Source: Escherichia coli (GTDB taxonomy: Bacteria > Pseudomonadota > Gammaproteobacteria > Enterobacterales > Enterobacteriaceae). From it: a stretch of 64,000 nucleotides of DNA. The position numbers were made by a program, and so were the translations under genes. Position 1 is the first letter of the stretch. Each line of letters begins with the position of its first letter. The stretch is taken from the NCBI RefSeq assembly GCF_011045215.1, contig NZ_CP049201.1. The stretch is one strand, 5' to 3'. Under the pieces are notes generated by a model, which was given only the letters and a program-made list of their open reading frames with translations, had not been told where the DNA came from and searched no databases. Positions 50,434-50,469 of the stretch are shown here, piece after piece.

Positions 50434-50469
50434 AAAAGATGAGATGGCTGGAAAAGATGAGATGGCTGG
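50434..50469. repeat. Perfect 18-bp tandem duplication (AAAAGATGAGATGGCTGG x2)
   Basis: Read directly; lies in the intergenic spacer between the minor pilin gene and the first adhesin-like gene. Confidence 0.8.

Follow-up and report, generated by a model that had tools for sequence, protein, structure and literature searches.

The tandem duplication and its surroundings

We analyzed a stretch of 64,000 nucleotides (nt) of Escherichia coli DNA (NZ_CP049201.1; hereafter the window), and examined a short tandem duplication in which the 18-bp unit AAAAGATGAGATGGCTGG occurs twice head-to-tail, with nothing between the copies and with 100% identity. The window belongs to a large E. coli-type plasmid, and its positions 30,000-54,000 are 99.3% identical to plasmid A of the bovine E. 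coli strain C5 (NZ_CP010123.1). Based on Pfam matches and the C5 annotation, the repeat sits within a plasmid-borne Pap-like (pi-group) chaperone-usher fimbrial operon, in the spacer that precedes the first adhesin gene (Table 1). Our results suggest that it is most probably a recent, neutral duplication of the slippage type within the remnant of a lipoprotein gene, which was inherited by a small sublineage of near-identical plasmids.

First, both direct inspection of the sequence and Tandem Repeats Finder confirmed the perfect 18-bp tandem duplication described in the initial annotation, which had also correctly located it upstream of the first adhesin-like gene. The program reported positions 50434-50470 (period 18, 2.1 copies, 100% matches, score 74), the period-18 match running one base past copy 2, to the A at 50470. 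This score was the highest among the 25 rows obtained for the window, and the runner-up reached 52. At least two matches to the unit were found in 0 of 100 shuffled sequences, and only ~1.2e-6 perfect tandem duplications with a unit of at least 18 nt would be expected per 64 kb of random sequence. In addition, the identical two-copy sequence was present in three independent public assemblies (loci L022, L025 and L026), which shows that it is not an assembly artefact. Thus, the duplication, which was observed directly, is a real event and not the product of chance. No further copy of the unit was detected on either strand of the 64 kb with up to three mismatches allowed, and dispersed copies of a binding site or attachment site were rejected on this basis.

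Second, we compared the position of the repeat with the breakpoints of composition and homology in this region. The initial annotation had placed it at the boundary of a low-GC (guanine-plus-cytosine) adhesin cassette and had considered a recombination scar at the cassette junction. The former is incorrect, as GC content has already fallen in the preceding subunit gene (Table 1): the low-GC block begins at ~49,700-49,800, and the repeat lies ~640-730 nt inside it. Other plasmid-borne pap-like operons showed 80-90% DNA identity across the usher-to-K genes, and the 85-90% identity to such operons stopped at ~49,705. Homology at the 75% level to two related plasmids (CP057124 and CP058084) extended further, to the stop codon of the F-like subunit gene at 50411. 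The repeat coincides neither with the GC step nor with the deletion junction of the remnant, ~75 nt downstream, and it flanks no cassette.

These data bear on the idea that the repeat is a target-site duplication or an attachment-site remnant left by insertion or exchange of the low-GC adhesin cassette. Such a scar would agree with the different gene content found at the spacer region in CP057124 and CP058084, and with the end of the 75%-level homology to these plasmids just upstream of the spacer. On the other hand, the two copies are adjacent and enclose nothing, the low-GC block has no third copy at its opposite end, nor does the rest of the window, and both the GC step and the end of the 85-90% homology lie at ~49,700. 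Locus L024, which contains the same cassette, also lacked the duplication, as did 22 further loci that share the three adhesin genes. Moreover, homologues of adhesin 1 follow an intact lipoprotein gene in loci L028, L029 and L041, which argues that the arrangement of the window resulted from an internal deletion (at ~50,540) and not from an insertion at 50,434. The scar proposed in the initial annotation was therefore left unsupported, and we consider this explanation extremely improbable. Only in a wider sense could the entire spacer be called a scar, being what is left of the lipoprotein gene; the 18-bp repeat arose later and separately inside it.

Another spacer in this part of the operon, located between the K-like and F-like subunit genes, corresponds to the site where loci L029, L032-34 and L036 encode a 421-444-aa (amino acids) FKBP-like protein. 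An unbiased nhmmer scan for a remnant of the FKBP-like gene in 49698-49844 was negative, and the only local similarity was a marginal 20-nt match that was equalled in 3 of 300 shuffles, so that a remnant was not confirmed here.

Table 1. Features of the fimbrial operon and of the repeat-bearing spacer in the window
Feature	Position	Strand	GC content	Remarks
PapB-like regulator gene and two subunit genes	upstream of usher gene			Pfam, C5 annotation
Usher gene	45053-47629			Pfam Usher with PapC_N and PapC_C, E 1e-151
Chaperone gene	47759-48490			Pfam PapD_N and PapD_C
PapJ gene	48517-49113			Pfam PapJ
K-like subunit gene	49110-49697		0.51	
Spacer after K-like gene, 147 nt	49698-49844		0.46	
PapF/StfF-like minor fimbrial subunit gene (F-like), 188 aa	49845-50411	+	0.42	Pfam Fimbrial, E 1e-15
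Repeat-bearing spacer, 167 nt	50412-50578	+	0.37	between PapF-like gene and first PapG-like adhesin gene
Shine-Dalgarno-like AGGA	50429-50432	+		6 nt upstream of relic ATG
Copy 1 of AAAAGATGAGATGGCTGG	50434-50451	+		contains relic start codon ATG
G presence/absence (A6-G or A7)	50438	+		within unit; G absent in commonest haplotype (148-nt spacer, 15 loci)
Relic start codon	50439-50441	+		
Relic mini-ORF (open reading frame) MRWLEKMRWLECVSFV, then stop	50439-50489	+		16 codons in two-copy allele
Copy 2 of AAAAGATGAGATGGCTGG	50452-50469	+		perfect; second in-frame ATG at 50457-50459
Junction k-mer of duplication, GATGGCTGGAAAAGATGAGATGG				
In-frame TAG	50487-50489	+		in degenerate signal peptide
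Lipobox codons GGT TAT GAT	50493-50501	+		GGT TGT GAT in L032; Cys codon TGT changed to TAT
Conserved block ATGAAAAAAGTACACAGCG	from 50517	+		counterpart of ATGAAGAAAGTAAACAGCG in intact gene
Internal deletion junction	~50540-50547			~280 nt of gene body lost
GGC indel	50567-50569	+		absent in 146-nt haplotype (6 loci and metagenome locus L027)
TAA	50577-50579	+		overlaps adhesin ATG
Adhesin gene 1, 319 aa	50579-51538	+		PapG-like two-domain tip adhesin (predicted)
Adhesin-like gene 2, ~310-320 aa	51577-52506			
Adhesin-like gene 3, ~310-320 aa	52539-53483			
FaeA/PapI-family regulator gene, 71 aa	53807-54022			
Adhesin genes and FaeA region			0.37-0.39	
Deacetylase gene			0.53	

Similarity of the spacer to YuaE-like lipoprotein genes

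In more distant relatives of the operon, the position of the spacer is occupied by an intact gene for a ~130-aa lipoprotein that belongs to Pfam family PF27278 ('YuaE', precomputed assignment). The order of subunit gene, PF27278 gene and adhesin-1 homologue was found in L028 from E. coli, L029-31, L032-34 from Salmonella, and L041. We built a DNA profile from five intact genes and searched both strands of the whole window with nhmmer, which gave a sole match, at 50468-50558 on the plus strand (envelope 50437-50570, E 4.5e-6), the next-best one having an E of 7.8. When a single Salmonella-type gene (L032 or L034) was used as the query, the top nhmmer match fell at the same place (E 0.007). The remnant was missed by a BLASTN scan with relaxed parameters, and nhmmer alone detected it.

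The homology between the spacer and the intact gene was directly visible in the alignment, which is collinear from the Shine-Dalgarno site through the start codon and signal peptide to the lipobox. Downstream of the lipobox, a local block starting with ATGAARAAAGTA reached a score that none of 500 shuffles attained, and the 3' tail TGAGTGGAATGATACCAA resembled the 3' ends of the genes in L028 and L029, a similarity equalled in 11-12 of 1000 shuffles. Alignment methods disagreed on the ancestral frame, MAFFT placing no gap and nhmmer a 10-nt gap. Judged from these alignments and from the gene order, the spacer is a putative remnant of a decayed PF27278 gene, which has not been annotated. The 18-bp unit covers positions -5 to +13 relative to the start of this dead gene. 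When read from the relic ATG, the one-copy spacer encodes MRWLECVSFV, a stop, TGYDEYRWAMKKVHSVVVSGMIPISKAIN and a second stop, so that the mini-ORF of this allele has 10 codons; six more are added, in frame, by the duplication, and translation of either form is only hypothetical.

Members of PF27278, which occur in E. coli, Salmonella, E. marmotae and Citrobacter, form ~100 sequence clusters, all of them annotated as 'hypothetical' or 'lipoprotein'. For this family, no NCBIfam model exists, and sequence searches revealed no solved structure. In the literature, the name 'YuaE' led only to beetle taxonomy and to a Bacillus gene that is unrelated, and no paper was found that joins chaperone-usher, FKBP, fimbrial operon and plasmid. 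In a set of Pap-like operons of E. coli and Salmonella, the PF27278 gene is consistently located just upstream of the tip-adhesin gene. YuaE-like lipoproteins may be fimbrial accessory factors.

The related IncF plasmids CP057124.1 (L035, 5086-5191) and CP058084.1 (L036, 5097-5245) contain another remnant of this lipoprotein gene, truncated in a different way: MIKTGVIFLVGLFLTGCDTYQMAAKLYG followed by a stop. It consists of the signal peptide and lipobox and then a stop codon, and the adhesin gene behind it is unrelated to that of the window (22% identity, E 0.29). It appears that adhesin modules have been exchanged with breakpoints inside the lipoprotein gene, a recurrent breakpoint that is distinct from the 18-bp repeat.

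Analysis of sequence variation suggested that the spacer is under little constraint. Of the spacer sites, 2.8% were segregating, a value within the 1.6-4.8% found at third-codon positions of the flanking genes. Three independent indels have accumulated in the 149-nt spacer (the 1-nt G, the 18-bp duplication and the 3-nt GGC), and none was found in the 960 nt of adhesin gene 1. Two of the three fall in the same stretch, an A-run followed by AGATGAGATGG, which suggests that this stretch is prone to slippage. In the 146-nt haplotype, for instance in the C5 plasmid of E. coli, the lack of GGC removes AAGG, the sole Shine-Dalgarno-like motif before adhesin gene 1; this raises the question of how adhesin 1 is translated there.

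Although the initial annotation had suggested that the element might affect expression, we found no sign of this in the sequence. Consensus scans detected neither a sigma-70-like promoter nor an intrinsic terminator in the one-copy or the two-copy allele, and the making or breaking of such a signal by the duplication was rejected within the limits of these scans. No Rfam family matched the spacer at E values up to 1, and RNA folding of both alleles was no better than that of shuffled sequence (z = +0.41); a structured RNA or riboswitch was rejected on these two grounds. In the centroid structures, the local hairpin predicted over the adhesin start was unchanged between the two alleles.

Copy number among related loci and origin of the duplication

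To place the repeat among its relatives, we compared 27 distinct homologous loci, window included, which were obtained by exact-protein look-ups of the flanking genes, from the C5 plasmid and from one metagenome contig. About 70 contigs were read for this census, and the subunit gene was indexed in 767 blocks. Exact look-ups of the 319-aa and 314-aa ORFs of adhesins 2 and 3 were empty, and matches were obtained with the start codons chosen by gene callers. A metagenome scan with the left flank yielded one locus (L027) and a scan of complete E. coli genomes and PLSDB only one homologous locus, each with a single copy; no homologous locus was found in species-representative genomes.

A single copy was present in 23 of the 27 loci, and two copies were present in the remaining four: the window, L022 (GCA_036881595.1, NCBI), L025 (SRR11014969, Logan) and L026 (SRR9674885, Logan). 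No three-copy allele was found among them. The two-copy state was thus not invariant across homologous loci, and the copy-number variability proposed in the initial annotation holds only in a minimal sense, as just two states exist. This polymorphism and its restriction to the closest relatives of the window are direct observations: the three other two-copy loci are the nearest relatives of the window, differing from it by 0, 1 and 4 single-nucleotide polymorphisms (SNPs) in ~3.1 kb, and the other haplotypes diverge from it by 0.6-1.6%. All more divergent haplotypes, as well as the start regions of the intact genes, have a single copy, which indicates that the duplication is the derived state. 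In addition, the spacer of L024 (GCA_036881095.1) equals that of the window minus exactly one unit; therefore, the duplication arose after the spacer had acquired its present form.

Taken together, head-to-tail identity, presence or absence among near-identical loci, a single ancestral copy and low constraint were all found here, as in a slippage duplication. The most probable course of events is the following. A yuaE-like lipoprotein gene would first have decayed in this operon lineage to a 149-nt remnant, whose former ribosome-binding and start-codon region would now be non-functional DNA. Replication slippage or template switching would then have duplicated 18 bp of this region, within a purine-rich stretch in which an A6 run precedes AGATGAGATGG. 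The ancestral sequence GTAGGAAAAAAGATGAGATGGCTGGAGTG contains the A6 run and a tandem AGATG-AGATG, and microhomology at the duplication junction is limited to 1 nt (A), as is typical of these two mechanisms. Finally, the duplication would have been inherited by the small sublineage, most likely as a selectively neutral change. Because the affected DNA is a putative pseudogene remnant, the absence of any phenotypic effect is the simplest expectation.

Several observations weigh against this interpretation. A hidden Markov model (HMM) of 90 YuaE-like proteins found no match to the spacer in a six-frame scan, and the segments of L028, L029, L035 and L036 were not significant when used singly in nhmmer. 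Since the protein profile was negative, the assignment of the relic rests on DNA similarity and conserved gene order; such a miss would be expected if all that is left is the signal peptide with a few codons of the C terminus, and it fits a remnant rather than a live gene. The lengths of the internal deletion, of GGC and of the duplication are all divisible by three, and from the relic ATG the spacer forms one frame, interrupted by a single TAG and ending in the TAA that overlaps the adhesin ATG. These in-frame lengths could hint at residual translation or translational coupling. At position 51346, the one-copy L024 has the derived C of the window group and the two-copy L026 keeps the ancestral T, a discordance that needs a secondary loss, a second gain or recombination, and some reversibility may be possible.

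Nine SNPs within 92 nt of the PapJ gene (48662-48753) set the window and L022 apart from L024, L021, L023 and L001, to which they are otherwise nearly identical. These SNPs have the appearance of a short tract of recombination (gene conversion), which indicates that recombination is active at the locus.

A different explanation of the spacer assumes that the remnant still loads ribosomes at the old Shine-Dalgarno site and ATG, and that a relay of short ORFs feeds the weakly initiating adhesin gene. The relay would start with the mini-ORF beginning MRWLE (50439-50489), continue with MMNIGGQ, whose TGA overlaps the next ATG, and end with MKKVHSVVVSGMIPISKAIN, whose TAA overlaps the adhesin ATG. 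The duplication, by adding a second ATG and lengthening the mini-ORF, would then be a regulatory variant that alters the dose of the adhesin through translational coupling, polarity or mRNA stability. Such a leader is compatible with the AGGA 6 nt upstream of the relic ATG, with the fact that both the duplication and the GGC indel preserve the frame, and with two stop-start overlaps (ATGA and TAATG). It also agrees with the weakness of the Shine-Dalgarno-like AAGG of adhesin 1, which lies 10 nt from the ATG and is deleted in the 146-nt haplotype. The only two SNPs inside the seven-codon middle ORF are both synonymous in its frame; however, this test of conservation is without power, as there are only four SNPs in total and the mini-ORFs are missing where the intact gene remains. 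In AT-rich sequence, short ORFs and stop-start overlaps also arise often by chance. The spacer changes about as fast as third-codon positions and gathers indels, and the duplication leaves the predicted RNA structure at the adhesin start unaltered. The duplication occurs in only four loci, all near-clonal, and in relatives the lipoprotein and adhesin genes overlap or lie up to 534 nt apart, so that coupling is not conserved. On balance, a regulatory leader seems unlikely. A further version, in which the dead gene was co-opted as a translated leader and the duplication acts as a heritable and possibly reversible switch of tip-adhesin dose, appears very unlikely.

Fimbrial operons are classic phase-variable systems, and the repeat might therefore be regarded as a contingency locus, at which high-frequency switching of copy number would turn adhesin expression on and off. 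Copy number does differ among very close relatives, and the SNP pattern described above needs a loss or a second gain. However, recombination, as in the 48662-48753 tract, can explain the discordant SNP without repeated switching, and only one- and two-copy states were seen. As 18 nt is a multiple of three, a change in copy number leaves any reading frame intact. The repeat does not lie between promoter hexamers, no promoter having been detected, and it is outside any expressed gene, 110 nt upstream of the adhesin ATG. We found no evidence of high-frequency switching, and phase variation is highly improbable as the explanation of this repeat. The neutral, slippage-type duplication within the lipoprotein-gene remnant remains the explanation that we consider likely.

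The fimbrial operon and comparison with known systems

The operon contains a PapC-type usher, a PapD-type chaperone, PapJ, Fimbrial-domain subunits and a two-domain G-type adhesin, as found in Pap/PL-like pi-group operons. Identification of the F-like subunit by NCBIfam gave a StfF-like match that falls below the curated cutoff. The AlphaFold2 model of adhesin 1 had a mean predicted local distance difference test (pLDDT) score of 75.5, and its best structure matches were PapG in the PapC-PapD-PapG complex (6cd2_B, E 7.3e-7, probability 1.00) and PapG lectin domains; a weak Pfam match to MrpH_C was also found. According to this model, adhesin 1 is predicted to be a PapG-like tip adhesin. No similarity was detectable among the three adhesin-like proteins by BLASTP (E above 1), and NCBIfam and PDB sequence searches returned nothing for them. 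A tip module with three adhesin genes (50579-53483) is unusual, as pi-group operons normally encode a single G adhesin. The FaeA/PapI-family gene is located downstream of the adhesin genes and not divergently upstream of the operon. Upstream of the operon, probably in its regulatory region, degenerate T-rich tandem repeats with periods of 8-11 occupy 43174-43237, within a low-GC segment (42,500-44,000, 31-38% GC).

The 18-bp repeat is of minor importance: this indel looks neutral and is at most a marker of one plasmid sublineage. It represents a fresh instance of a very well-known event, and the biology around it is more interesting. The remnant, the exchange of adhesins and the tandem of three PapG-like genes bear on the diversification of the receptor-binding tip in plasmid-borne Pap-like fimbriae. 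They are side observations and not properties of the repeat.

With regard to known systems, short tandem duplications that arise by slipped-strand mispairing or template switching are a general form of indel polymorphism in bacteria. The repeat resembles them in its perfect head-to-tail and recent copies, its location in a low-complexity stretch with homopolymer-length polymorphism, its minimal microhomology and the unconstrained DNA around it. Compared with typical microsatellites, its 18-bp unit is longer and has not expanded past two copies. In Haemophilus and Neisseria, contingency loci with simple-sequence repeat tracts control adhesin and fimbrial genes. The repeat is similar to such loci in its proximity to adhesin genes and in the variation of copy number between strains; in contrast with them, it shows no multi-allelic copy series, its unit is a multiple of three, and it lies outside any promoter spacer or live ORF.

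The spacer can likewise be compared with the PF27278 genes. It shares with them its position, its strand and collinear DNA from the 5' untranslated region through the lipobox and the 'MKKV' block to the 3' end. It differs from them in that ~280 nt have been deleted, an in-frame stop is present, the Cys codon of the lipobox is mutated and no match exists at the protein level.

As for the operon, P-like (PL, plf) fimbriae and the related Pap, Pix and Sfp are encoded by pi-group operons, on E. coli IncF plasmids (bioRxiv 10.1101/2021.07.20.453171). In the study of Habouria et al., the adhesin genes were the most divergent and exchangeable part of these clusters (PlfG classes), the plf clusters had no equivalent of PapI, and neither FKBP-like nor lipoprotein accessory genes were mentioned (bioRxiv 10.1101/2021.07.20.453171). 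The closest described system would appear to be PL fimbriae with their Pap/Pix/Sfp relatives, the likeness to plf (QT598, KP119165.1) being one of description only. Like PL fimbriae, the operon of the window is plasmid-borne and encodes a PapB-like regulator, a major subunit, a PapH-like protein, an usher, a chaperone, PapJ, K- and F-like subunits and a PapG-fold adhesin. Unlike PL fimbriae, it has three tandem and mutually unrelated adhesin-like genes instead of one G gene, a downstream FaeA/PapI-like gene, and a putative lipoprotein-gene remnant before the adhesins.

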